Below, piece by piece: positions 8,311-32,964 of a stretch of DNA of 40,794 nucleotides. Source of the DNA: an uncultured Candidatus Saccharibacteria bacterium (GTDB taxonomy: Bacteria; Patescibacteriota; Minisyncoccia; Phycocordibacterales; CAIZLB01); contig CAYZIG010000001.1 of NCBI GenBank assembly GCA_964478465.1, forward strand, positions 1-40,794, written 5' to 3'. Both the position numbers and the translations under genes were made by a program. How positions within the stretch are numbered: the stretch's first letter is position 1; every line of letters starts with the position of its first letter. The notes beneath the pieces were generated by a model. That model did not search any database. It was not told the origin of the DNA and saw nothing but the letters and a program-made list of their open reading frames with translations.

Positions 8311-9825
8311 TTATACCCCCTGATCTGTCAAAAAATTATCAATTAAAGTTTCATTGCTTGATACACTATAATTTACAGCTTTGAAAAAATCAGCTTTTAC
8401 AACTGCATCAACTTTTAATACTTTTGTTGCTTCAAAATATCCCGTCAAAGAATCTTCTAGTTCATGAGTATAATTACCCCATGTGCTCGTATCAAGTACA
8501 CAATTTGCAGACAAAACAGGATTTATATCATCCCTATACCCTGCTAATGAACCCTCCCAGTTTATTAATTTTGAAATATTAACATAAGCCCATCCCCCGA
8601 CTTGAAATAAATCGTTTGTAGAATAAAAAGCATCTATTTCAAGTGTAATTGAAGGATTTGCAAATTTAGCAAAATGAATATCTGACATTGTTTTTATGAA
8701 ACTTTCTCTAGCTGTTTGTCTGCTTCCTGAGTAATCATTCATGCCTTCAAAAGTTATTTCCTGAGCTTTAAGCGGTGACAATCCGTATTTTTTAATTGAA
8801 TCATCATTAGTATAGTAATATAACTCAGTTCCGTTCATAGCTTTGATTATAATATGATTTTGTATCTCTGTAAGTATGATTTTCTTAGAATTAACGCTTA
8901 TAACATTTGTATCATCAAGAGTTATGTCGGGATTTATAATACTTTTTTCCTCTATTTCATCAAAACTCATAGTTGAGGAATCAAAAGTTCCACCTACAAA
9001 ACTAGCCCATGTTTTAGCCGGTACTGTAATTAATAATTCGGTTGTCAGCGGATTTCTATTTAGTTTAGAATATAGTTTTCCATCTGTTTTTACATATGAA
9101 AAAATATTACATGGCATCAAAACATTTTTTTGTATCCAGTCACGCGGATTTTGCAAAGCCTCCGTAAATTCATAATAAAAAACCACTCCATCAAGATGAG
9201 GATAATTGGCAATATCCCAAGAAGTGTTGGAACCGTCCCAATCAAGATATTCTTTCCAGTCTTTACCTTCCAATAGTTGAAAAACTCCTTTTACAAAGTC
9301 AATTGGAGAACCTTGAAATATTATAGTGTCATAAGGGTCTGGTCTTGAAAACCCTGTTAATGTCGGAAAAGTTATTGAAGATTGTGCAACTCCGTTTATT
9401 TTGAAAAGATAGTTTTGAAAAACTGTTTGTTTTGCAAGCTCTTGAACGTCTCCTATGTCAAAATTATACCAAGTTTCATAAGCGTCATGGGTAACATTTC
9501 TCAAATATCCTGCATAAATTAAAGTTCCTACACCATCAATGTAGGCATATATATCAACTTTATTCTTATAAATATTTTTCGTAACACCTCCGACATTCAA
9601 AACTTGTAAACTTTCATATATCCAACTAGATACTGTTTCATTAAGATTTTGTACTTTCACTTGGATATTTGATACCGCTGTCGTACATCTTGTAGTATCT
9701 AACTGCATCGAATGATTTTGCGGAAGTTCCATAATATCCAGTGTAGAAAAATCCTTTATCGGGTCGGTATATATTCGCATCTTATAATAAATTTCTTTTT
9801 CTGAGGTTGTATTTTTAATCTTCAT
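8311..9825 (-). CDS. Distal tail protein candidate (Dit-position)
   Basis: 504-aa ORF overlapping the tape-measure stop by 11 nt. The call rests on position only. Confidence 0.5.
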   Translation of the reverse strand: MKIKNTTSEKEIYYKMRIYTDPIKDFSTLDIMELPQNHSMQLDTTRCTTAVSNIQVKVQNLNETVSSWIYESLQVLNVGGVTKNIYKNKVDIYAYIDGVGTLIYAGYLRNVTHDAYETWYNFDIGDVQELAKQTVFQNYLFKINGVAQSSITFPTLTGFSRPDPYDTIIFQGSPIDFVKGVFQLLEGKDWKEYLDWDGSNTSWDIANYPHLDGVVFYYEFTEALQNPRDWIQKNVLMPCNIFSYVKTDGKLYSKLNRNPLTTELLITVPAKTWASFVGGTFDSSTMSFDEIEEKSIINPDITLDDTNVISVNSKKIILTEIQNHIIIKAMNGTELYYYTNDDSIKKYGLSPLKAQEITFEGMNDYSGSRQTARESFIKTMSDIHFAKFANPSITLEIDAFYSTNDLFQVGGWAYVNISKLINWEGSLAGYRDDINPVLSANCVLDTSTWGNYTHELEDSLTGYFEATKVLKVDAVVKADFFKAVNYSVSSNETLIDNFLTDQGV

Positions 9826-12800
9826 AGACTATCTTCCTCGCTTCCACAGTATATCCGTCATCTGACAATTGCATCAACTCAGGCATTAATAATTTTGCTA
9901 CATCATTTGACTTAATATCAACTTTAACAACTTTTACATTTTCTTTCTTTTCAGTTTCTTTTGTATATTCGTCTTTTGGTGGCGTGTAAGGGGTCATGGT
10001 TGAGATTTTTTCATATCCTGCTGTCTTTGTTTCATCTATACTTATCGAACGTCCTACACCGCCCAGAGCAACCGCAACGGCGGTATTTTGTGCAACTGAT
10101 GCCAAGTCATTTGGAATTAACGCCCATGTTGCGGGATTAGTAGCATGAAACGCCGCGTCCCCTGCACTTATCAAAGCTTTCATTCCTGCTTTTTGTGCTT
10201 CTTGAAATGCAAATTCTTGTAACATCTTCTTTCCTGATTCAATTATCTGGTCATATCCTATTGCCTGACCTTTAATACTTTTGTTCATTAAGTCTTCTGC
10301 TGTTTTATCTACTTTTTCTTTTAAATTTAAATATGAATTTTCAAGATTAACTTTTGATAAATAAAACTTTTTATCATTTTCAAGCTGTTCAAGCTTAATT
10401 CTTTTCTCATTTTCAGTATAATCTTTTAGTTTTTTAAGTTTATCATCTTTTATGTCTGGTTTTTCTACTTTCTGTGTAACCATTTCTTCGTTATATTGTG
10501 CAATTTCTTCTTTTGTTTTTGGTTCTTCGTTTGTAGTTTCTTTCAATCCTATCAATGCAAGTGTTTTTCTGTTATAATCAGCTCTATGATAATCAATCCA
10601 ACTATCAAAATCATCATCAAACTTTTGCTTTAATGCTTTTCTTTCTTCGTCTGATTGAGTATTTAAAAGATTTTTCTTGTATTCCGTTAATAAATCTGAT
10701 TCTGCTAATAATAAAGCTGTTTCGTATTCAAATTTATATTCTAATTCTTGTCTTTTAAAATATTCTTTTTCTTTTGATAAATCAAAATTGTATTGTATCT
10801 CTTTATCTTTTAATTTTTTATCAATATCAAGTATTTCTTTTGAGGTTTTTTCAATGTCTAAAGCACGTTTTTTTAAGTTTTCTTCGTCATTTTTCTTTTT
10901 ATCTTCTAAAAGTTTTTTTTCTGCTTTTTCAGCCTCTTTTGCAATCTTTTCTTTTGCGTCCGTTTCTTCTTTAGCATTTTTTTTATCTGCTTCAATCTTT
11001 AATTTTGACATATTAGCATCTTGAATTATTCTTTTCTTTTCTGTTTCTAGTTTTTCCGATTCTATTTCAATATCTTTTATTAATTTATCAGCTCTTATTT
11101 TTTTACTAGCATCAGTTTCATTTTTTATTATAATCTCAGCATCTATTTTTTTTAATTGTTCTATTTTTTTTAAAGTCTTTTTTTCCTCTTCATATATCAA
11201 TACTTGTGTTTCATAATTTTTTTCTGCAACTTGCCACCCAAATTTATCAATTAATCCAAGTTTTGCTTTTTGTATTTCTAAAGCAAAATCATTTTCAGCC
11301 TCTTTTAAATCTGAATTTGATTTTTTAATCATCTCTATTTCTTGTTTATTATATGAAACATCAGGTTTTTTAGGTTCTATAGGAATTTCAACTTTTTTTT
11401 CTTCAAATACATCAGCATACATTCTGTTATATTTTTCTTTTATCTCATTTATTTCTGCTTTTATTTCAATTTCCTTACCACCAATTTTTTTTATTTCTGC
11501 CTCACCTGTACCAAGCATACCACGTTGTCTATCCCATTCCAACAATGTTTTATAGGTTTCTTCTGCATCACGTTTAATTATATCTGCTCTTGACCTCAAA
11601 TTTTTTGTTGTTATTTCAATTTGTTTTTCGCCTTTTTTTTCTAATAAGTTATTTTCTTCTATAATACTATCTTCTGCCATTTTCATTATTTTTTCATTAT
11701 ATCTAAATTGCAAAAGTTCGTTTATTTCTAAAAGTTTTTTATATGCATCATCAGGTGTTTCAAATTTTGTGACATCGACGCTTATTTTGCTTTCTTTTAA
11801 TTTTTCTGCATTTATTCTCATTCTAGCTTCTAGTTGTAAATTTTCTCTTTCTAATCTATCTTTTTTCTCAAGTTCGTCTTTTTCTCTTTTATAAACCTTG
11901 TTAATTTCTTCCTGTGCCATTTCCATTACTAATTTTTTCTTTAAAGCTTCTCTTGCTCCCTCAATTGCTGTTTTTACATCGTTCCATTTAGTTTTCTCGC
12001 TGTCTATATTTTTGAAGTGTTCTGGATATAATTCTTTCATAGTTTTTATAGCATCACCGTATAATTCTTGTTCTTTTTTAGTTTTATGAAGTTTTACTCC
12101 TAACTCTTCTATAGTTATAGCAACTGATTCAAAGCTAACCCGGCTTTCTTCTGCTTTATCAATTTGAGGGATAAAAGATTTTACAAAATCAGCAATAGCC
12201 ATTCTTCCAGCATCCAAAGCAGGTTGAAATTTAGAACCTAAAAACTCAGTATAATCAGTCCATGCATTTTTCATTAAATCTTCTGCATCTACTTGCAATT
12301 CTGCGTGTCCTTTGTATGCTAGTTCTATCTCGTCGAGTATGATAGACTGTGCTCCTAGTACATTATTCGTTTCCATCATTGTTTGAATAGTTTTTTTCTG
12401 CTGTTCTGAGAAATGGAACCCGCTTTTTGATAATGCCCCCATCCCGCTTATCGGATCTTGTAAGGCTTTTCCAATTTGCATTGCAGAACTTGAAAGGTCG
12501 GTTTTCATTACAGCAGACATATCAAGCATGGCTTGCGTTGCTCTTGGCATAACCTCTTCACTCATTCCGTTAAAAGTTAATAGCATTTTGTCCGCTTCTA
12601 TGATTGCTTGGTCTGTATAATTTGTATTTTGTGACAATGCTTTAGCGTTTAATTGGAGTTTTTCAGAGAAAGCATCGGTATAAATACCCATATTTTTCAT
12701 TTGTAAATTCATTCCATCGACTGCGTCCGCCTGTTCGTCCGAAGCGTCTCTCCATGATGTTATAATATCAATTCCCGACTTTATAACATCAAAAAATTTT

Positions 12801-13036
12801 GTCGCTGCTTCTGTAATCTGATTAAATCCGAACCCTGCTATTGATAAACTTGTGAACCCTTCTTTTATCTTATCGAAAAAGCCTTTTTGTTTCTCTGCGT
12901 GTTCTCCAATACTTTCATTCATTTCCTCAGTAGTATCAATAACACGCCTTGCCCCATCTTCAAAATCTTCAGTGTTAAAACTTATTCGGCTTTCTACGTC
13001 ATTGTCATTTTCTTCATCTCTTGCTATTGTTCTCAC
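9815..13036 (-). CDS. Tail tape measure protein
   Basis: 1073 aa with a GTG start. The N-terminal core SSAMQIGKALQDPISGMGALSKSGFHFSEQQKKTIQTMMETNNVLGAQSIILDEIE matches the TP901-type tape-measure core pattern. A very long K/E-rich coiled coil follows. Confidence 0.85.
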   Translation of the reverse strand: MRTIARDEENDNDVESRISFNTEDFEDGARRVIDTTEEMNESIGEHAEKQKGFFDKIKEGFTSLSIAGFGFNQITEAATKFFDVIKSGIDIITSWRDASDEQADAVDGMNLQMKNMGIYTDAFSEKLQLNAKALSQNTNYTDQAIIEADKMLLTFNGMSEEVMPRATQAMLDMSAVMKTDLSSSAMQIGKALQDPISGMGALSKSGFHFSEQQKKTIQTMMETNNVLGAQSIILDEIELAYKGHAELQVDAEDLMKNAWTDYTEFLGSKFQPALDAGRMAIADFVKSFIPQIDKAEESRVSFESVAITIEELGVKLHKTKKEQELYGDAIKTMKELYPEHFKNIDSEKTKWNDVKTAIEGAREALKKKLVMEMAQEEINKVYKREKDELEKKDRLERENLQLEARMRINAEKLKESKISVDVTKFETPDDAYKKLLEINELLQFRYNEKIMKMAEDSIIEENNLLEKKGEKQIEITTKNLRSRADIIKRDAEETYKTLLEWDRQRGMLGTGEAEIKKIGGKEIEIKAEINEIKEKYNRMYADVFEEKKVEIPIEPKKPDVSYNKQEIEMIKKSNSDLKEAENDFALEIQKAKLGLIDKFGWQVAEKNYETQVLIYEEEKKTLKKIEQLKKIDAEIIIKNETDASKKIRADKLIKDIEIESEKLETEKKRIIQDANMSKLKIEADKKNAKEETDAKEKIAKEAEKAEKKLLEDKKKNDEENLKKRALDIEKTSKEILDIDKKLKDKEIQYNFDLSKEKEYFKRQELEYKFEYETALLLAESDLLTEYKKNLLNTQSDEERKALKQKFDDDFDSWIDYHRADYNRKTLALIGLKETTNEEPKTKEEIAQYNEEMVTQKVEKPDIKDDKLKKLKDYTENEKRIKLEQLENDKKFYLSKVNLENSYLNLKEKVDKTAEDLMNKSIKGQAIGYDQIIESGKKMLQEFAFQEAQKAGMKALISAGDAAFHATNPATWALIPNDLASVAQNTAVAVALGGVGRSISIDETKTAGYEKISTMTPYTPPKDEYTKETEKKENVKVVKVDIKSNDVAKLLMPELMQLSDDGYTVEARKIVYED

Positions 13037-13057
13037 CTACCTTTTCAAACTTATAAT

Positions 13058-13091
13058 CCTTACAAAATAAAAATACTAATAATTTGTAAGG
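13058..13091 (-). promoter_or_regulatory. Stem-loop between the hydrolase gene and the tape measure
   Basis: The 9-bp stem CCTTACAAA / TTTGTAAGG has a 16-nt loop and no U-tract on either strand. Confidence 0.3.
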
Positions 13092-13169
13092 TATGCAATA
13101 TTGATTATGAATACATTTTGAACAGTCAGGAAGTATATCAATATTTATATACGTTTTCATATCCATTTT

Positions 13170-14297
13170 CTATACCTCCCTAGTTTTTAAAATAACCTCA
13201 ATATCAAATAATCCGTTTTGTAGTTTTTTTGGTCTTACTTCATTATATTCAAAATCACAATATACCTCATTACCTATACTTTCCCCACCTTCGTAATCAT
13301 AGAAAAATAGTTTTGAAATATTTATTTTAGTTCCTGAGTTAGTTTTAAAATAATTCATTACTGTTAATTTTTCCGCTATTGATAGAGCTTGTATTTTTAA
13401 GTTATAAATATATTTTTTATGAAGTTCTAAAGTTTCAATAGTATAATTTAATGATATATTTTTAAACTCTTCTGATTCTCTGCCGTTTGTTAATATTCCA
13501 AAAAATTTATATCTTGTGGCCGGTGAAAAAGAAATTCCGAATAACCCTATTTGATATAATCTTCTTTGAATTGATTGCATTATTCTAACTGTACCACTGC
13601 TTAAATCATCCCAAATATTCGGAGTATAATCATGTGTAATGTACACTAAACCCGTTGTGAATACAAAACTGTCTATATTTGCATCAGTAATACTATTAAA
13701 ATCAGCATTATAAAACAAAGCTCCTCTTGTTCCTTTTTCATAGTTTTGATAATGTGTATAGCCTGTTGCAATTCCTCCTAACTGTGATAAATTAATAGTA
13801 GAATAATCACCTTCTGCTACTATCAAAGTATCTGCGAACCCTTTCCAGAACATATAATCTGTACACGCTGTACCGGGATTACCTACAACATAATCAAAAC
13901 CGATTGATTTCGCATAAGCTGTGTATCCTGAGTATAAATCACCAAAATTACTTGTATCTAGTATTTCATTTTCTACCCACGATACCTCGTCCATGAAAAT
14001 TCCATCAACTTCAGAATAGTAATTTCTCCATGTGTCCATCTCGATTTCAACCGCTGAAGGAGAACGCACACCGTAATTTGTTGCAACGTAACCTAAGATA
14101 AAAGCTCCTGCCTCTTTTAAACTTGCTATTCCTGCTGTATAGTTTGCATCTATTGAACCCCCTACACCGCTATTAGGATTCACTATTATAAAAGTTGGTA
14201 CTTTATATGTCAATATATATTCTTCTAATATAGCCCATCCCGAACTTGTGGGATAACTATATAACGGTATTATGATCCCACTTTTTGGCAATTCCAT
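13170..14297 (-). CDS. Spherulin-4-like (GH135/Sph3-type) glycoside hydrolase with unknown C-terminal domain
   Basis: IIIPLYSYPTSSGWAILEEYILTYKVPTFIIVNPNSGVGGSIDANYTAGIASLKEAGAFILGYVATNYGVRSPSAVEIEMDTWRNYYSEVDGIFMDEVS follows the Spherulin-4 pattern (PLY.YP...W, vNPnnGpG, lGYV.T.Y, vDGiF.DE). The family is recalled, not searched. Confidence 0.65.
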   Translation of the reverse strand: MELPKSGIIIPLYSYPTSSGWAILEEYILTYKVPTFIIVNPNSGVGGSIDANYTAGIASLKEAGAFILGYVATNYGVRSPSAVEIEMDTWRNYYSEVDGIFMDEVSWVENEILDTSNFGDLYSGYTAYAKSIGFDYVVGNPGTACTDYMFWKGFADTLIVAEGDYSTINLSQLGGIATGYTHYQNYEKGTRGALFYNADFNSITDANIDSFVFTTGLVYITHDYTPNIWDDLSSGTVRIMQSIQRRLYQIGLFGISFSPATRYKFFGILTNGRESEEFKNISLNYTIETLELHKKYIYNLKIQALSIAEKLTVMNYFKTNSGTKINISKLFFYDYEGGESIGNEVYCDFEYNEVRPKKLQNGLFDIEVILKTREV

Positions 14298-14302
14298 TTA
14301 TA

Positions 14303-14620
14303 TCACGCTCCCATCATTCTCCTCAATTCGTTAATCTGATTAATCTGTCTTTTTTTCTTATCCTCGTCCGTTGATGTGTCAATCTCAGTTATAACTTTTT
14401 TTAATAATGCTTTCTTTTCTGTATATATTTCACTATAATTTTCTTTGCTTTCAGTTTCTAACCAGAGATGATTCTCTGCAATTTCTAACAGTCTTAAGTC
14501 TTCCTGAGCTTGGACTATTGAAATTTTAGAGTACATATCAAGGAAAATTATACTCTTCATCTTCATTACTTCGTCAAATTTATAATTATAATATTTACAG
14601 AATTGACTTATCATGTACAT
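14303..14620 (-). CDS. Tail assembly chaperone, T-like part (also expressed as a GT fusion)
   Basis: The frame stays open upstream of its ATG back to the A10 tract, in the -1 frame relative to the preceding ORF. It lies downstream of the tail-tube genes. Confidence 0.6.
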   Translation of the reverse strand: MYMISQFCKYYNYKFDEVMKMKSIIFLDMYSKISIVQAQEDLRLLEIAENHLWLETESKENYSEIYTEKKALLKKVITEIDTSTDEDKKKRQINQINELRRMMGA

Positions 14621-14658
14621 TACATCTATGTCATAATCTGTCTTATCGTCCGAGTTAT

Positions 14659-14946
14659 TTAGTTTTTTTTTTCGTTTTTACCTAGCATTATTTCGGTAAG
14701 TATTTTTATAAGTTCGTTTAATTGTGATAATGTTAGTTTGTCAGGATTTATTCTTTTATATATCTTTGATTTTACCGCACATTTTTTTAATAACCATTTT
14801 GCTAGTGTTAAACTGTCTCTAAATTGTCCTTTCTGTAATTTGTTCATATATTCGTAATAATCCGATACAGTAGGATTTTTTATTTTATACTTTTCACCGT
14901 TAAATTGTATTTGGTTTTCTTCCAATATGTCAAGATTGTATAACAT
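14659..14946 (-). CDS. Tail assembly chaperone, G-like
   Basis: 95-aa ORF directly after the tail-tube genes. It ends GAA AAA AAA AAC TAA, which contains a slippery run. Confidence 0.65.
   Translation of the reverse strand: MLYNLDILEENQIQFNGEKYKIKNPTVSDYYEYMNKLQKGQFRDSLTLAKWLLKKCAVKSKIYKRINPDKLTLSQLNELIKILTEIMLGKNEKKN
14663..14672 (-). promoter_or_regulatory. Programmed -1 ribosomal frameshift site (A10)
   Basis: The minus strand reads CG-AAAAAAAAAA-CT, three codons before the G stop. After a -1 shift the reading frame runs without stops (KLNNSDDKTDYDIDV) into the 105-aa ORF. This is the conserved G/GT arrangement. Confidence 0.6.
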
Positions 14947-14992
14947 TTTTAACCCTCCTTAGAAAAAAAACACCCTTTCGAGTGCTTTTAAT

Positions 14993-15967
14993 CTAGTATT
15001 TTTTTCTTAAACTTATATTATCTATAGTACCGGTCCAAGTCGTACTTGATAAAATCATAGTTATACCATCTGCGAACTCGTCCGCTGTGAAATAAATTAA
15101 ATGTGATGCTAAACCTAATTTATTTAAATTCAATTTGTAACTTGTTGCAGTATTTGCGTAAATACTTAACCATTCGGGAACACCACTACCCATTGTTGCG
15201 GTTGTATTTGTTTCAAAATATAAAGCATATACCTCCCCAGTTGTAATAGTTTCTAAATATGTCGGGCTTAGATATATTTGACTTCCTAAACCTTCACCAA
15301 TAGGGTCTACCTGTGATATTTTTTCAGAAACAAGTGTAAATCCACTTATACTCCAGTTTGGAGTCCCAGATAAATTTCTATCAACTAAGTTTGTGATCAT
15401 TTCATCGCCAAATAATCCAAATTTTATTTTATCGCCGTTATTGTCATATTCTGCATTTATTTCTAATATAACACTCGCATTTTCTCCGTTAGTTCCCTTT
15501 TTTTCAAACTTTTTATCTATACAACATCTTAGAATAACAATGTCGTAAGATGTGTTATTTGCAGGAAGTTCAGAAGGATGAAGTCTTAAAATAAATTCAT
15601 TTAAAATATTTCCTACGACATTTCTAGCTGTTGAAATATCCCCTATTCCTGTTTCGTCATTTTCTACTGTTATACCTTCAAAATTTTTTATACCTGTTAC
15701 CCATTCATCAAGTTTTGCTATGGTAAAATCACTTAATTCTAGTTTTAATTTAGTTTCATTTATATCATGCAAAAATTTTATTGGTTCATTTCCACTTTCA
15801 AGGATTGTAACGCCTTTTAATTTTTCCGACCAATTAAATTCTGGTACTGATTTCTGAGAACCTAACAATGTCCACGCCTCATGTGTAAGAGGCACAACAC
15901 TATTATTATAAGGTGCAATATAAGGTTTAAATGTTCCTACATATTTACTTTTCATTATCCACCCCAC
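14993..15967 (-). CDS. Tail-tube paralog 3 with ~140-aa C-terminal extension
   Basis: Shares PYIAPY, LGSQKSVPEFNWSEK, LSDFTIAKLDEWVTGIKNFEG, ILRLHPSE and DKKFEKKGTNGE with the two upstream ORFs. It lies immediately upstream of the chaperones. Confidence 0.55.
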   Translation of the reverse strand: MGWIMKSKYVGTFKPYIAPYNNSVVPLTHEAWTLLGSQKSVPEFNWSEKLKGVTILESGNEPIKFLHDINETKLKLELSDFTIAKLDEWVTGIKNFEGITVENDETGIGDISTARNVVGNILNEFILRLHPSELPANNTSYDIVILRCCIDKKFEKKGTNGENASVILEINAEYDNNGDKIKFGLFGDEMITNLVDRNLSGTPNWSISGFTLVSEKISQVDPIGEGLGSQIYLSPTYLETITTGEVYALYFETNTTATMGSGVPEWLSIYANTATSYKLNLNKLGLASHLIYFTADEFADGITMILSSTTWTGTIDNISLRKKY

Positions 15968-16545
15968 CCAATAATTAATTTTTGGTCTAAACTGTCAGAC
16001 ATTCCTAAAACTTCAAATTCTAAAACCGCTTGTTCTCCTATAATGCCTTTTTTATCAAATTTTTTATTTATTACTGCGTGAGTAATTATAATATCTTGGT
16101 CGTATAATGCCCCACGTTCGACAGGGTGCAATCTTATTATACACTCCGCTATATTTATCCCGATTTTATTTGTAATCGTTCCTATGGTATTTTCATCAAC
16201 ATTATAGCCCTGTAAGTTGCATATTTCAGCCAGTTCATCGAATGTAGGAGCATTTTGAAACTGACCCATCGCGTCAAAGCTTACAGCGAGCCTAAATCCT
16301 TGTAATTTTGTTAAATCTAAGTCTACAAGAAATAATTTTGCCATGAGAGGATGTTCCGAACATACAGCCCCATCAATTCCATCTTCTATCGTTTTAACTT
16401 CTGCGTTTTTTTCTGAATAATTAAATTCAACGCCTGTTTTCTGATTTCCTAAAGCTACCCATAGGTCATGGTCTGTAGGTATAAATCCATCGTCGTATAA
16501 AGCTATGTAAAGTTGAAAAATACTTGGATATAATGGTGTTCCCAT
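15955..16545 (-). CDS. Tail-tube paralog 2
   Basis: LGNQKTGVEFNYSEK, IIRLHPVE and NKKFDKKGIIGEQA align with paralogs 1 and 3. Confidence 0.55.
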   Translation of the reverse strand: MGTPLYPSIFQLYIALYDDGFIPTDHDLWVALGNQKTGVEFNYSEKNAEVKTIEDGIDGAVCSEHPLMAKLFLVDLDLTKLQGFRLAVSFDAMGQFQNAPTFDELAEICNLQGYNVDENTIGTITNKIGINIAECIIRLHPVERGALYDQDIIITHAVINKKFDKKGIIGEQAVLEFEVLGMSDSLDQKLIIGWGG

Positions 16546-16557
16546 TTGTTACCTCCC

Positions 16558-17100
16558 TTAAGCGGTAACCGCTCCAAATACGACTTTTCTCGGAGTTGCT
16601 GAATCATTCCACATTGCCATACAATCCCAAACAACAGCGGCTTGGTCTCCGTATGTTCCTTTCTTTTCAAAAGACTTATTCGCTACTATTCTACATAAGA
16701 TTATATCGTTTGAATAGTCTGTTCCCATTTCTGCCGGGTGAAGTCTCAATATGTACTCGCTTGCAATCTGTCCAACTTTATTTGTAACTGTCAAAACACT
16801 TGCAGCGTATGCAGCTCCATCAAAATTTGATATTCCTGCCGACCATTCATCCAACTTTGCTACTGTTATATCCGATAATGTTAATTTGCAAGTTGCGGAT
16901 TGACTTTCCATTATTGCTTTCACTGCTTCATTACCACTTTCCACCGTTTTTACACCTGCATACTTTTCAGAATAGTTAAACTCTGCAACCGCTTTTTGTG
17001 AACCTAAAGCCGTCCATCCGCTTAGATTTGCACATGTAGGTATCACTCCATCAGTTGTGTAAGGTGCAATGTACGGTATAAAATTACCTAACATTAACAT
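16558..17100 (-). CDS. Tail-tube paralog 1 (major tail protein candidate)
   Basis: PYIAPY, LGSQKAVAEFNYSEK, LSDITVAKLDEWSAGISNFDG, ILRLHPAE and NKSFEKKGTYGDQA. It is the first of three tandem homologs. Confidence 0.55.
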   Translation of the reverse strand: MLMLGNFIPYIAPYTTDGVIPTCANLSGWTALGSQKAVAEFNYSEKYAGVKTVESGNEAVKAIMESQSATCKLTLSDITVAKLDEWSAGISNFDGAAYAASVLTVTNKVGQIASEYILRLHPAEMGTDYSNDIILCRIVANKSFEKKGTYGDQAAVVWDCMAMWNDSATPRKVVFGAVTA

Positions 17101-17121
17101 ATGTATTTCCTCCTTTATTTC

Positions 17122-17565
17122 TTATATTTTTAAATCAATTGAAGAGCTTACTGATAAACTACCTCTTATTGTTATTTCTGCAATCCACACATCATGTTCT
17201 TTTTCTTCGCTTATATATACTACATCAATATCATCTATATCTCCAAAAGCTGATTGTACAGAAACATTTCCAAGCATTTCATTAATCACTACACTTTCAA
17301 CCGTTTCTATCCAGTTTAAATATCCTGAACTATCATCATCTAATATTTTGGGACTTGTATAAGTTACTAATATTTCAAAATCTCTTCTTCTAGGAATCCC
17401 TTGATTAGATGCCATTAAAAGCCGTCTATGCCGTATAGGTGAAATAGTTACGAAAGTTGTAGTAAAAGCATTAGTATAAGTTTCTTCGCTTCCTATAATG
17501 TCACACAGCCAAGATTTAGATATATAAAAACTTCTCATAGCATTACAAAGCGTTTTCATTGCCAT
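17122..17565 (-). CDS. Head-tail joining / tail completion protein candidate
   Basis: 147-aa ORF between the capsid and tail-tube genes. The call rests on position only. Confidence 0.4.
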   Translation of the reverse strand: MAMKTLCNAMRSFYISKSWLCDIIGSEETYTNAFTTTFVTISPIRHRRLLMASNQGIPRRRDFEILVTYTSPKILDDDSSGYLNWIETVESVVINEMLGNVSVQSAFGDIDDIDVVYISEEKEHDVWIAEITIRGSLSVSSSIDLKI

Positions 17566-17978
17566 ATACCCCTATCAAGTGTATTTTCATATATTCTCAT
17601 TCCTCTTGTTATAATATTACCTGTAGGTGTTGCGTTTGTACCACCCGAACCTTCTATTCTTTCTTTTAATCCTTTTAAAGCCCTATCATACAAAATGAAT
17701 TGTTCTGCCGCTATCGCCTCGGCTTTCATTCTTGCGTAAATCATATAATTGATATAGTAACCTTTTATAGTCGTCCAGTCTGCGTCACTTATTTGTGTCC
17801 AGTTCTCACGTTTAATTTGAAAAGATACGTCGCCTTCGCAATCTGCATTATATTTTGTAACTAACGAAGCTAAATCAACCTCAGCGGAAACAAGTCCGTA
17901 TATCCCAAGTCCTTTATAAATTTTGTGTATCTCAGCATCAAGAAATAAATCTGACACTGCTAAATTTGGTATTGCCAT
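17556..17978 (-). CDS. Head-tail connector candidate
   Basis: 140-aa ORF, the first gene after the major capsid protein. The call rests on position only. Confidence 0.4.
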   Translation of the reverse strand: MAIPNLAVSDLFLDAEIHKIYKGLGIYGLVSAEVDLASLVTKYNADCEGDVSFQIKRENWTQISDADWTTIKGYYINYMIYARMKAEAIAAEQFILYDRALKGLKERIEGSGGTNATPTGNIITRGMRIYENTLDRGIWQ

Positions 17979-17997: not shown

Positions 17998-18019
17998 GAG
18001 GGCGTTTTTATCCGCCCTC
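17998..18019 (-). terminator. GC-rich stem-loop right after the capsid gene (attenuator or mRNA-stabilising hairpin)
   Basis: The stem GAGGCG-type GAGGGCG...CGCCCTC (7 bp) lies immediately after the capsid TAA. On the minus strand it is followed by an RBS and the next ATG rather than a U-tract, so it is at most a partial terminator. Confidence 0.35.
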
Positions 18020-18025
18020 AGTTTT

Positions 18026-19054
18026 TTAAGCCATTGTTATTTCGTAAGTTTGGATAGAAACAGGGTCAACCACTATTGCAAAAGCTCCTGTTTTTACGAA
18101 GAGTAAAGCATCAGGATTTAAGTCTGTACCCTCTTGTATTCCTGTGTAATAATCCCCTAAATATGTATCGGGATATTTTGTAGTAGGATTTTTTACATCT
18201 ATCGCTCCATATCCTATTTTTAATTGTGCCGTGTCTATACATTTTATTACGTTACCAGGTATGATTGTTACTCCGTTCTGGTCAAATGTGTATGGCATCT
18301 GTTCAAGATTTTTTCCCATGAACGTCCCTATTACCATTGCCTTGTCATTTGCTGACATTGCCGCAATGTTATTCATACCTAATGACAACATAGTCGCCTG
18401 TAATGATGTATCTTGCAACATTTTGTCAACTATTGTTTCACCTATTAGGAAGTTAGTCATTTTCTTTCTGTTTTTCTTCGTATAGTCAAAATCTATATCT
18501 TTTACGAGTTTTAAAAATCCCGTTGTAGCATTGTAAGTTTTTGCCACTGGTGCAGGCAATCCGAAATCCCATTGCGAAGTACCGTCTGCAAAAGGAACTA
18601 TTCCGTTATTTATCAATTTTTCACACATTATTTCTAATGCTGAATCTATTGCATCTTTGATATACCCGTATTTTTCCTCTGCTATTACCTGAGCGGTTGG
18701 GATTGCTTGACCATTTATAAAGAATACGTTATTACTGTCCGCTTGCATCTGTGTTATCTCGTCTGCTGTTAAGCTTTCAGAAGCGAAAATTATTCCCGGT
18801 TCTATTTCAACCTTTCTGAAATGTGTACCATTAAGAGTTTTTTCTATTCTTTCCCCTCTTTTTATCAAGTCAGCCGCTTTTGCTTTATCTACTCTATATC
18901 TCCATTCTATTTTTCTTGCTCTCGTTGACATTAACGGAGCCGTTTTCTTGAAAAGGTCGAGAAAAGGCGTTAATGTTACAGGTTTTGAAGCTACCAATAT
19001 TCCATAGTTTACTTTTACCTGTTCAGGTAGTTGATTCAGTGTTATTACTGCCAT
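18026..19054 (-). CDS. Major capsid protein (lambda E-like)
   Basis: 342 aa. It is preceded by a decoration-type gene and a protease/scaffold gene, as in lambda C/Nu3-D-E. Its length and termini resemble the lambda E family (recalled). Confidence 0.75.
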   Translation of the reverse strand: MAVITLNQLPEQVKVNYGILVASKPVTLTPFLDLFKKTAPLMSTRARKIEWRYRVDKAKAADLIKRGERIEKTLNGTHFRKVEIEPGIIFASESLTADEITQMQADSNNVFFINGQAIPTAQVIAEEKYGYIKDAIDSALEIMCEKLINNGIVPFADGTSQWDFGLPAPVAKTYNATTGFLKLVKDIDFDYTKKNRKKMTNFLIGETIVDKMLQDTSLQATMLSLGMNNIAAMSANDKAMVIGTFMGKNLEQMPYTFDQNGVTIIPGNVIKCIDTAQLKIGYGAIDVKNPTTKYPDTYLGDYYTGIQEGTDLNPDALLFVKTGAFAIVVDPVSIQTYEITMA

Positions 19055-31500: not shown

Positions 31501-32964
31501 CTATCTTTTATAATTTGTTGTGTCTATGCCTGAATGTTGATTTCCATTTAAAATTGTTTCTGCAACCCCTGTTAGTGCATCTTCTGCATCATCATAATCA
31601 TTTTTACTTTCTTTCATAAACCTATGTAAGTGGTCGTATAAATCACTCCATATTATATGCCAATTCTCAGGAAAATAAACATTATCTTGAATCCATACCG
31701 CATATGAGTTTATTCTTGCCTCTTTATTTTCAGATTGATGAAATCCTTTTATCACGCATTTATAATAATTATGTATTTTTTTTAATTTTTCCTCAGAAAA
31801 CAACTTGAATGGATGCCCACCATTATTATATTCTATTCTAGCATAATTAACTTTATTTTCACTATGTTTTTTAGCCCATAACGAGGCAGTTATGCTCATA
31901 TCGTCCTTTGTGTATATAACATCTTTTATATAAGCCTTTTTATTCTCTTCAAAGAAAATATAAGTGCATAAAAAATCTTTTCCAGTATCAGCGGTATCAG
32001 TATAAGATTTTATTATTGCACCACTTTCAATTAATGATTTTAATTTTTCATTATCATAAGTTTTAAACCCTTGTGAATACATTAAACCTTTAGCAGGTTT
32101 TGGATTTTGTTGGTATAAACTTTCAAAAGTAATAATATCTTTTGCCTTAACTTTTAATAATCTTTCTTTTGAATGTCTTTTCTCCCATAATGCCTCACCT
32201 AATTGTCGAGGGTCATTTATATTGTTTTCATTTTCTTTTATAGCGGGAAAAGATACTATTTCCCAATCATCAGGTTCATTCTTTAGTATATAACCCCCTA
32301 AATCATTTTCATGCCATCTAGTGAATACTATTAGAACTTGGCTATTATTATGTAATCTAGTTTCGGCAGTTGTATTATACCACTCCTGTACATTTTTACG
32401 CTGTACTGGTGACCATGCTTCTTTAGCATCTTTATAAATATCATCTATTATCAATATATCTATCTTTCTTGATGTTAATGCTCCACCAACTCCGACACTT
32501 ACCAGTGAACCAGTATTATTTACTATTTCAAATTCATCAGAGTTTCTAAGCCATGATTGTGCTGTTCTAACATTGCTACCATTTAACAAAGTTTTAGGAA
32601 AAATAGCCCTATAAACACTATCGTCGATTATTCTTTGAATATCTCTATTGAAGCTTGATGCAACAGTGTGATTATAAGCTGCAACCGCTAATTTTTTATT
32701 GGGATATTTACCAAGTAAAAATGCACTTAAACGCCTTGTAGCAATCTCTGTTTTTCCATGCTGTGGAGGTACAAATATCATAAGCCTTTTTATTTCTCCG
32801 TTTGCAAATTTGGTAAGTTTATCACACATATATTTATGATGCCAATTAACCTCGTAATTATCTTTAGTCTGTAAGGTAAATTCTAAAAGGCTTCTTCTTG
32901 CAAGTTCCCTTTTTGCTTCTCGTCTTATTAACTCTTTTTCAGCTTCTTTTTTAAGGTTCTGCAA
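31501..32964 (-). CDS. terL: Terminase large subunit
   Basis: Walker A-like VPPQHGKTE, Walker B-like ILIIDDIYKD, and a C-terminal nuclease-type acidic motif (DDAEDALTG). It follows the small subunit with a 14-nt overlap. Confidence 0.85.
   Translation of the reverse strand: MQNLKKEAEKELIRREAKRELARRSLLEFTLQTKDNYEVNWHHKYMCDKLTKFANGEIKRLMIFVPPQHGKTEIATRRLSAFLLGKYPNKKLAVAAYNHTVASSFNRDIQRIIDDSVYRAIFPKTLLNGSNVRTAQSWLRNSDEFEIVNNTGSLVSVGVGGALTSRKIDILIIDDIYKDAKEAWSPVQRKNVQEWYNTTAETRLHNNSQVLIVFTRWHENDLGGYILKNEPDDWEIVSFPAIKENENNINDPRQLGEALWEKRHSKERLLKVKAKDIITFESLYQQNPKPAKGLMYSQGFKTYDNEKLKSLIESGAIIKSYTDTADTGKDFLCTYIFFEENKKAYIKDVIYTKDDMSITASLWAKKHSENKVNYARIEYNNGGHPFKLFSEEKLKKIHNYYKCVIKGFHQSENKEARINSYAVWIQDNVYFPENWHIIWSDLYDHLHRFMKESKNDYDDAEDALTGVAETILNGNQHSGIDTTNYKR

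Follow-up and report, generated by a model that had tools for sequence, protein, structure and literature searches.

What do three related genes do in the place where a tailed phage is expected to carry a single gene for its major tail protein (MTP)? The question is raised by contig CAYZIG010000001.1, assembled under an uncultured Candidatus Saccharibacteria bacterium (GCA_964478465.1). The window analysed here is this whole contig of 40,794 nucleotides (40.8 kb, ~31% G+C), in which nearly all long open reading frames (ORFs) lie on the minus strand. An initial annotation, made from the letters alone, had singled out three consecutive ORFs of 180, 196 and 324 amino acids (aa) as tandem tail-tube paralogues, the last with an extra domain. 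All three ORFs are present where it placed them, and we refer to them, in the order of transcription on the minus strand, as A (17100-16558, 180 aa), B (16545-15955, 196 aa) and C (15967-14993 and 324 aa if read from a GTG, 15955-14993 and 320 aa if read from an ATG).

BLASTP relates every pair of the products (A-C, 44% identity, E 3e-48; A-B, 38%, E 7e-34; B-C, 36%, E 6e-24), a similarity far above chance that confirms A, B and C as tandem paralogues. The sequence blocks by which the annotation had recognised the family hold in part: LG(S/N)QK..EFN(Y/W)SEK, I(L/I)RLHP.E and (D/N)K.F(E/D)KKG..G(E/D) occur in all three proteins, whereas PYIAPY and LSD.T.AKLDEW..GI.NF.G are confined to A and C, B reading LYIALY and LVDLDLTKLQGFRLAVSFDA at these positions. 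The additional C-terminal domain of the third copy is there as described. In the 320-aa product, residues 1-182 form the tube domain (15410..15955, minus strand), followed by an extension of ~138 aa (14993..15409, minus strand; TPNWSISGFTL ... WTGTIDNISLRKKY) that is predicted to comprise a low-confidence linker and a beta-rich domain, family unassigned.

Are these indeed tube proteins? No Pfam family matched A, B or C in single-protein or profile searches, and no PDB entry was matched by sequence, profiles included. Among phage protein families, A (P0001) gives a weak match to phrog_2175 ('protein with Ig domain', for immunoglobulin; E 3.4e-6) that B and C do not share. More distant relatives, described below, match the same family more strongly (P0012, P0015 and P0017-P0020; E 1.3e-18 to 3e-46), and three of them, P0012, P0017 and P0018, additionally match phrog_885, 'major tail protein', to which the window is thus linked transitively only.

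Predicted structure is more telling. A first AlphaFold model, of A, was built from the three-sequence alignment and was poor, with a predicted local distance difference test (pLDDT) score of 51; its fold matches were mainly tube proteins, none of them significant. A second model, of C, was built from a 13-sequence alignment of relatives and reached a pLDDT of ~80 over residues 10-180, where its elements follow in the order strand, hairpin, helix, strands. Compared with the PDB by Foldseek, this model returned 24 matches at E<1e-3, and all 24 are tail-tube proteins or tail assemblies containing a tube, so that the predicted shared domain of C matches tube proteins only, in keeping with the common tube fold that the annotation had supposed. 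The best match is gp13 of mycobacteriophage Douge (E 1.7e-6), and others include Sf11, Bxb1, Chi, SPR, YSD1, YDC107, lambda gpV and JBD30, with target-normalised template modelling (TM) scores of 0.56-0.64 against the ~154-aa cores of lambda gpV (0.56), Sf11 and YDC107. In the BFVD collection, 150 fold matches were found (best E 5.3e-9), with proteins annotated as major tail proteins in phages of Corynebacterium, Mycobacterium and Gordonia at the head of the list.

Gene position points the same way. Immediately downstream of the tandem comes a G/GT chaperone pair with its -1 frameshift, followed by the tape measure gene; A, B and C thus stand, as the annotation had proposed, in the slot of a single MTP gene. 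When all open frames of 60 aa or more in the window were searched with the profile, exactly three tube-domain genes and no other tube candidate came out, so that the place of the single MTP gene is taken jointly by A, B and C. Taken together, the predicted fold of the shared domain of C, the homology of A and B to it and the gene slot support the assignment of all three as siphophage tail-tube proteins with a lambda gpV-type fold.

Start signals, divergence and relatives of the copies

Translation signals differ along the tandem. A is preceded by the ribosome-binding site AAAGGAGG, 8 nt ahead of its ATG, and B, which starts 12 nt beyond the stop of A, by GGGAGG at 6 nt; GGAGG-type Shine-Dalgarno sequences at canonical spacing are shared by A, B, the capsid gene and the first chaperone gene. 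For C, the ATG at 15955 is the more likely start, since it overlaps the stop of B (TAATG) and comes after a GGTGG-rich stretch; the public gene call for C (P0004) begins at the same codon. Inspection of the start regions showed no GGAGG site at this ATG, the start of C being coupled to the stop of B. Lacking a strong ribosome-binding site of its own and being translationally coupled, C is probably the least abundant of the three products. All three products are acidic, with isoelectric points of 4.5-5.2 (A 4.97, B 4.45).

Directly 3' of the stop of C lies a terminator-like RNA hairpin with a U-run (14958..14995, minus strand), whose predicted fold (-15.9 kcal/mol, z -4.3) was equalled in stability by 0 of 200 shuffled sequences; a scan for consensus terminators did not list it. 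As A, B and C all lie upstream of it, the hairpin is a probable attenuation point ahead of the chaperone and tape measure genes, consistent with three abundant structural products. We also considered the G+C content of third codon positions (GC3) as a proxy for expression and dropped it, as chaperone and connector genes gave values out of step with the abundance expected of them.

How widespread is this family? A HMMER search with the three-sequence profile against 1.84 billion representative proteins returned 14 proteins, 3 of them the window's own, and a word-based protein search with A alone returned A itself only. Neither C nor the presumed capsid protein (at E<=1e-5 for the latter) found a match by tblastn among 50,697 phage genomes, and pattern-based searches for the locus in viral, genome and metagenome collections found nothing. 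The lineage thus lies far from cultured phages. Nor does the host of the phage emerge clearly: the contig was binned with a 0.69-Mb genome of 105 contigs, whose relatives measure 0.5-1.1 Mb, and the tube family is absent from all 60 relatives of that genome that were searched, which renders the host assignment uncertain.

The sole close relative is represented by short metagenome contigs (L005-L009). On one of them, L006, an upstream gene is followed by a 182-aa copy that is 55% identical to A, a 244-aa copy and a 92-aa gene whose identity to the 95-aa chaperone of the window is 47%. The survey of copy number that the annotation had proposed accordingly yields three tube copies in the window, two in L006 and one in each of eight other, more distant loci. 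In five other contigs (L014, L019, L020, L021 and the contig carrying P0008), which offered enough DNA to show it, relatives occupy the tube slot: L019 has a relative, two small genes and an 1814-aa gene of tape-measure size, L020 a capsid gene, four small genes, a relative, two small genes and a 656-aa gene, and L021 and L014 have similar layouts.

Maximum-likelihood analysis unites the five close copies in a single clade (support 95/97), within which A pairs with C (88/94). With the close copies monophyletic, the distant relatives single-copy and the nearest relative two-copy, the duplications arose within this small lineage. Branch lengths of 0.23 for A, 0.91 for B and 0.92 for C indicate that A is the conservative copy and that B and C diverged about four times faster. 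The middle copy had been called the most divergent; B does have the lowest pairwise identities and carries indels, but its branch is no longer than that of C.

Are the additional copies still under selection? All three frames are intact in an AT-rich genome where stops arise easily. Between L005 and L006, which are population variants of the two-copy relative, the second copy (L006 861-1595; 245 codons) differs by 9 nonsynonymous and 41 synonymous codon changes, which indicates purifying selection on this copy. Intact frames and this low ratio together argue that the extra copies are not decaying. In the same comparison the first copy (L006 313-861) shows 10 synonymous differences in 183 codons, about four times fewer than the second, a count that is biased because these contigs were retrieved by an identical first protein; the excess is a hint that the second copy has undergone mosaic recombination or diversification.

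With the secondary-structure elements of the C model as a ruler, identity to A varies strongly from segment to segment. The first strand of the long hairpin (B 83%, C 66%), the RLHP strand (B 66%, C 77%) and the KKG loop (66% in both) are well kept. At the hairpin tip, where A is 88% identical to its orthologue, B retains 42% with a 2-residue deletion and C 55%, and the second hairpin strand is only 20-26% identical in B and C. The alpha-helix is 64% identical to A in C and 16% in B; directly after it B gains 22 residues, and the second copy of L006 carries a 65-residue insertion at the same place. In the MTP of phage JBD30 (gp44) this helix is peripheral, and an Ig-like decoration domain is inserted directly after it (PMC11445458), which places the changes in B and in the second copy of L006 at a standard outward decoration site.

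C keeps the helix and adds its material at the C-terminus instead. Residues 183-224 are modelled as a linker at pLDDT<50, and residues 225-320 as 7-8 strands at pLDDT 50-70, a beta-rich domain that is presumably displayed outside the tube. For the extension, searches gave no Pfam match at E<=10 and, among 5.8 billion proteins, no homologue; nor does the window contain a paralogue of it. A LamG-like nature, suggested by the LamG domains of relatives and by a match of the PNWSIS motif, was considered and dropped: the extension has no Pfam match to Laminin_G_3, hhalign to the LamG domains of the relatives gives a probability of 0.6%, and the one LamG signal, found by BLASTP, spans 25 residues at E 0.12.

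Single-copy relatives carry their additions elsewhere. Here a longer ORF ends in the tube domain and begins with a variable N-terminal domain, which is a LamG domain (LamG_3) in P0006 and P0011 and of an unrecognised type in P0007, P0010 and P0013. At the domain boundary, all three loci that could be read have an in-frame Shine-Dalgarno sequence (GGAGGG, AGGGAGGA or AAGGAGGA) followed after 9 nt by an ATG, at 8703 in L014:8001-9197, at 1321 in L016:868-1809 and at 1333 in L018:769-1818. Such in-frame internal sites number just two in L014, the other lying in a Mu-type protease/scaffold ORF (ATG 1456), and nested in-frame starts are well known from I/Z of phage Mu. This suggests that, through nested initiation, one ORF in L014, L016 and L018 yields two tube subunits, a naked one and one decorated at the N-terminus; if true, it would be a third genetic route to tube decoration inside one protein family. 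Domains thus appear to have been added within this MTP family at the C-terminus of a paralogue (window), in a loop of a paralogue (L006) and at the N-terminus with an internal start (L014, L016 and L018).

Possible roles of A, B and C in the tail

How might three such subunits be used? We favour, at a probability of roughly one half, a single tail whose bulk is built from A, with B and C joining the same polymer as surface-modified subunits, C being the domain-bearing form. A would polymerise as hexameric rings around the 1073-aa tape measure protein. B and C would enter the same tube, since both keep the blocks that make up the core sheets and, of the long inter-ring hairpin, the first strand, and would differ from A on the outward face, B by its helix and 22-residue loop insertion and C by its C-terminal beta-rich domain, with C made in smaller amounts. 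The outcome would be a sub-stoichiometric or locally placed outer decoration of the tail, probably serving weak adhesion to host surface polymers, and a result that SPP1 and the lactococcal 936-group phages reach by frameshifting would here be reached through gene duplication. B and C may be mixed in with A or gathered in special rings.

Several points speak against such an assignment of roles. The position of A as bulk subunit is not secure, as the ribosome-binding site of B equals that of A in strength. The extra domain of C is modelled with moderate confidence only and comes without an assigned fold or ligand. Moreover, the hairpin tip is shortened in B and the second hairpin strand poorly conserved in both B and C; an altered hairpin could mean changed contacts from ring to ring, and hence a specialised position rather than free mixing. 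The division of labour as a whole is drawn from start signals, evolutionary rates and homology to other tubes.

This leads to a competing view, tentative yet to be taken seriously, in which A alone makes the tube and B and/or C form one or a few hexameric rings at a defined place, be it the ring that docks on the distal tail protein or a head-proximal ring under the stopper; six C domains would then make a collar. Position-specific rings of this kind are how T4 gp19 is organised with gp48, gp54 and gp3, and likewise the two tube proteins of extracellular contractile injection systems; baseplate and cap tube-fold proteins of injection systems are indeed among the fold matches of C. The faster evolution of B and C and the divergent hairpin tip of B would fit a specialised place, all the more as in JBD30 the hinge loop, which corresponds to the same region, makes the contact with the following disc or with the distal tail protein (PMC11445458). 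With only two neck genes and no recognisable terminator in the lineage, a tube paralogue could also serve as terminator, an idea that we keep solely within this competing view since necks of the JBD30 type function without one. Against the competing view also stand the relatives L014, L019 and L020, which manage with a single tube gene and no paralogues. In addition, known specialised tube-fold proteins have usually diverged so far from the tube protein that they no longer align at 36-47% identity, and the ribosome-binding site of B is of full strength, like that of the capsid gene.

An obligate heteropolymer of fixed pattern, for example with A/B mixed hexamers or with C rings at regular intervals, strikes us as unlikely; its A/B hexamers would be a two-gene counterpart of the pseudo-hexameric tubes of T5 and P74-26 and of Hcp2-Hcp3 rings, and, if it proved true, the evolution of tube decoration could naturally be tested in this small MTP family. 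We give still less credit to interchangeable tube proteins, each building a whole tail and kept for robustness or for variation against host defences or across hosts. The core blocks kept in all three copies and the hint of recombination or diversification in the second copy of L006, with its fourfold synonymous differences, could be read in this way, and defence systems that sense tubes do exist, DSR2-SPR tube complexes being among our fold matches. Against this stands a single operon with no sign of a switch, in which the copies would be co-expressed so that a sensed copy would still be present, and the identity of 36-47% combined with differing outer features speaks for distinct roles of long standing. 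Least probable of all, and very doubtful, is that B and/or C are decaying duplicates or assembly factors outside the virion, with no structural role. The branches of B and C are longer than that of A, and GC3 is low in the tube-domain codons of C (0.148, versus 0.282 in A); yet frames of 196 and 320 codons have stayed intact despite the AT-richness, the core motifs are kept in B and C, B has a strong ribosome-binding site and C is coupled to B, the second copy of L006 has a low ratio of nonsynonymous to synonymous changes, and the tube domain of C, and to a lesser degree its added domain, is modelled as folded.

Comparison with characterised tails

One of the closest parallels to the tandem is JBD30, a siphophage with a Mu-type genome (Casadabanvirus) whose neck consists of adaptor and stopper only, with no terminator (PMC11445458). 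The model of C matches chain 8rk3_f of its baseplate model, which we take to be the tube protein, at E 8.2e-4, and the two share the order of elements, the sandwich, the long hinge loop, the peripheral helix and the decoration site. JBD30 and the window phage further have in common a two-gene neck and Mu-type features, in the window a Mu-type portal and Mu F domain. They differ in that the sole MTP gene of JBD30 includes a complete Ig-like domain at the site where B has ~22 extra residues and the second copy of L006 ~65. No significant sequence similarity was found between the JBD30 MTP and the window copies.

A tube with some long subunits is familiar from SPP1 (gp17.1/gp17.1*) and from TpeX of the lactococcal 936 group, in which a fraction of tube subunits carries an outward C-terminal adhesin or carbohydrate-binding module (PMC6669499). 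There, one gene gives two products by programmed frameshifting, whereas the long form in the window is a separate, diverged gene with its own start. No frameshift extension was found at A, B or C: no extension frame follows A or B, and the extension of C is in frame within C.

Multiple MTP genes have a precedent in actinophages. Two related MTP genes, 43% identical and stated to be of unknown function, occur in every one of the 56 sequenced Gordonia phages of cluster DJ, and in FortCran (gp22/gp24) one copy has 51 extra C-terminal residues; why two diverged tube genes should be kept is raised explicitly as a question for these phages (PMC12859696). Microbacterium phage Damascus (L022; OQ995438, record 10784-14873) has three annotated MTP genes, gp17, gp19 and gp20, of 286, 609 and 255 aa, which are paralogues 42-51% identical over ~215 aa, gp19 with a C-terminal extension of ~400 aa; in layout, Damascus comes very near to the window. 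The Damascus genome paper names a pair of major tail proteins, gp17 plus gp19; the third in the record, gp20, is 42-45% identical to the others over ~220 aa.

The actinophage arrangements (clusters DJ, EL and others, FortCran and Damascus included) thus resemble the window in having two to three paralogous MTP genes in the tail module at similar divergence. They differ in several respects: their copies are interrupted by another gene, whereas those of the window are contiguous with B and C coupled; the cluster DJ phages lack a recognisable chaperone gene, whereas the window phage has a G/GT pair; and their MTPs belong to a different family, the window phage being of a lineage with a Mu-type head. 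When A, B and C were compared by BLASTP with gp17, gp19 and gp20 of Damascus, nothing meaningful was found, the sole match spanning 80 residues of the C extension at E 0.01. This lack of similarity argues for an independent origin of the window copies, the likeness being one of layout and not of descent. As multi-copy MTP genes were already annotated in cultured phages, the novelty of the tandem is reduced accordingly; the window is an independent and compact example.

Tube paralogues can also share a ring, since mixed Hcp2-Hcp3 heterohexamers have been proven in a Bacteroidota type VI secretion system (PMC13035841). Like T4 gp19, gp48, gp54 and gp3, these are tube-fold paralogues encoded together that build one conduit, but they belong to contractile or secretion systems. 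To our knowledge, mixed rings have so far been shown in no siphophage tail.

Against this background, the locus offers one plain copy, one altered at the decoration loop and one with a whole extra domain, with single- and two-copy relatives for comparison. If the copies co-assemble, duplication would be, beside programmed frameshifting, another way to set how densely a tail carries adhesion domains, and the three proteins would be building blocks for engineered decorated polytubes. In practice, such use is limited by a phage that is uncultured and has an uncertain host.

Genes around the tandem

Along the direction of transcription, the genes run from terminase through portal, decoration-like protein, capsid and two small genes to A, B and C, and on to the chaperones, a Spherulin4-domain gene and the tape measure. 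The terminase lies at 31501-32964, a Mu-type portal fused to a Mu F domain is found upstream of the capsid module, and the presumed major capsid protein (18026-19054) is preceded by the gene for the decoration-like protein. Two small genes of 140 and 147 aa (17122..17978, minus strand) lie between the capsid gene and A. They had no family match in searches of domain and phage-family libraries and, from their position only, are presumed to encode the neck adaptor and stopper; the contig carrying P0008 has the same two small genes between capsid and tube relative.

Downstream of C, the tail assembly chaperone pair (14303..14946, minus strand) comprises a 95-aa G protein and a 214-aa G-T fusion. 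The 95-aa gene ends in GAA AAA AAA AAC TAA, and a simulated -1 slip on its run of ten A (14663-14672, minus strand) reads through the 105-aa ORF to give the fusion, so that, judged from sequence, the two genes have the canonical G/GT arrangement. The tape measure protein (9815..13036, minus strand; 1073 aa) matches phrog_27166 at E 2.7e-27, and Pfam TMP_2 at E 2.7e-6 with 27.7 bits, slightly under the curated cut-off of 30.2.

Two smaller observations concern the stretch ahead of A. The 147-aa neck gene and A lie in one frame, with just one TAA and seven codons between them, the codons holding the Shine-Dalgarno sequence of A (17100-17124, minus strand); this is probably a coincidence, mentioned here because relatives carry an upstream domain fused in frame to the tube domain. 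Further upstream, in the 47 nt that separate the capsid gene from the first neck gene, lies a G+C-rich 7-bp hairpin (GAGGGCG...CGCCCTC, 17998-18019), which the terminator scan reports as terminator-like on the plus strand; as it has no U-run on the coding (minus) strand, it may instead be an mRNA-stabilising or processing element.

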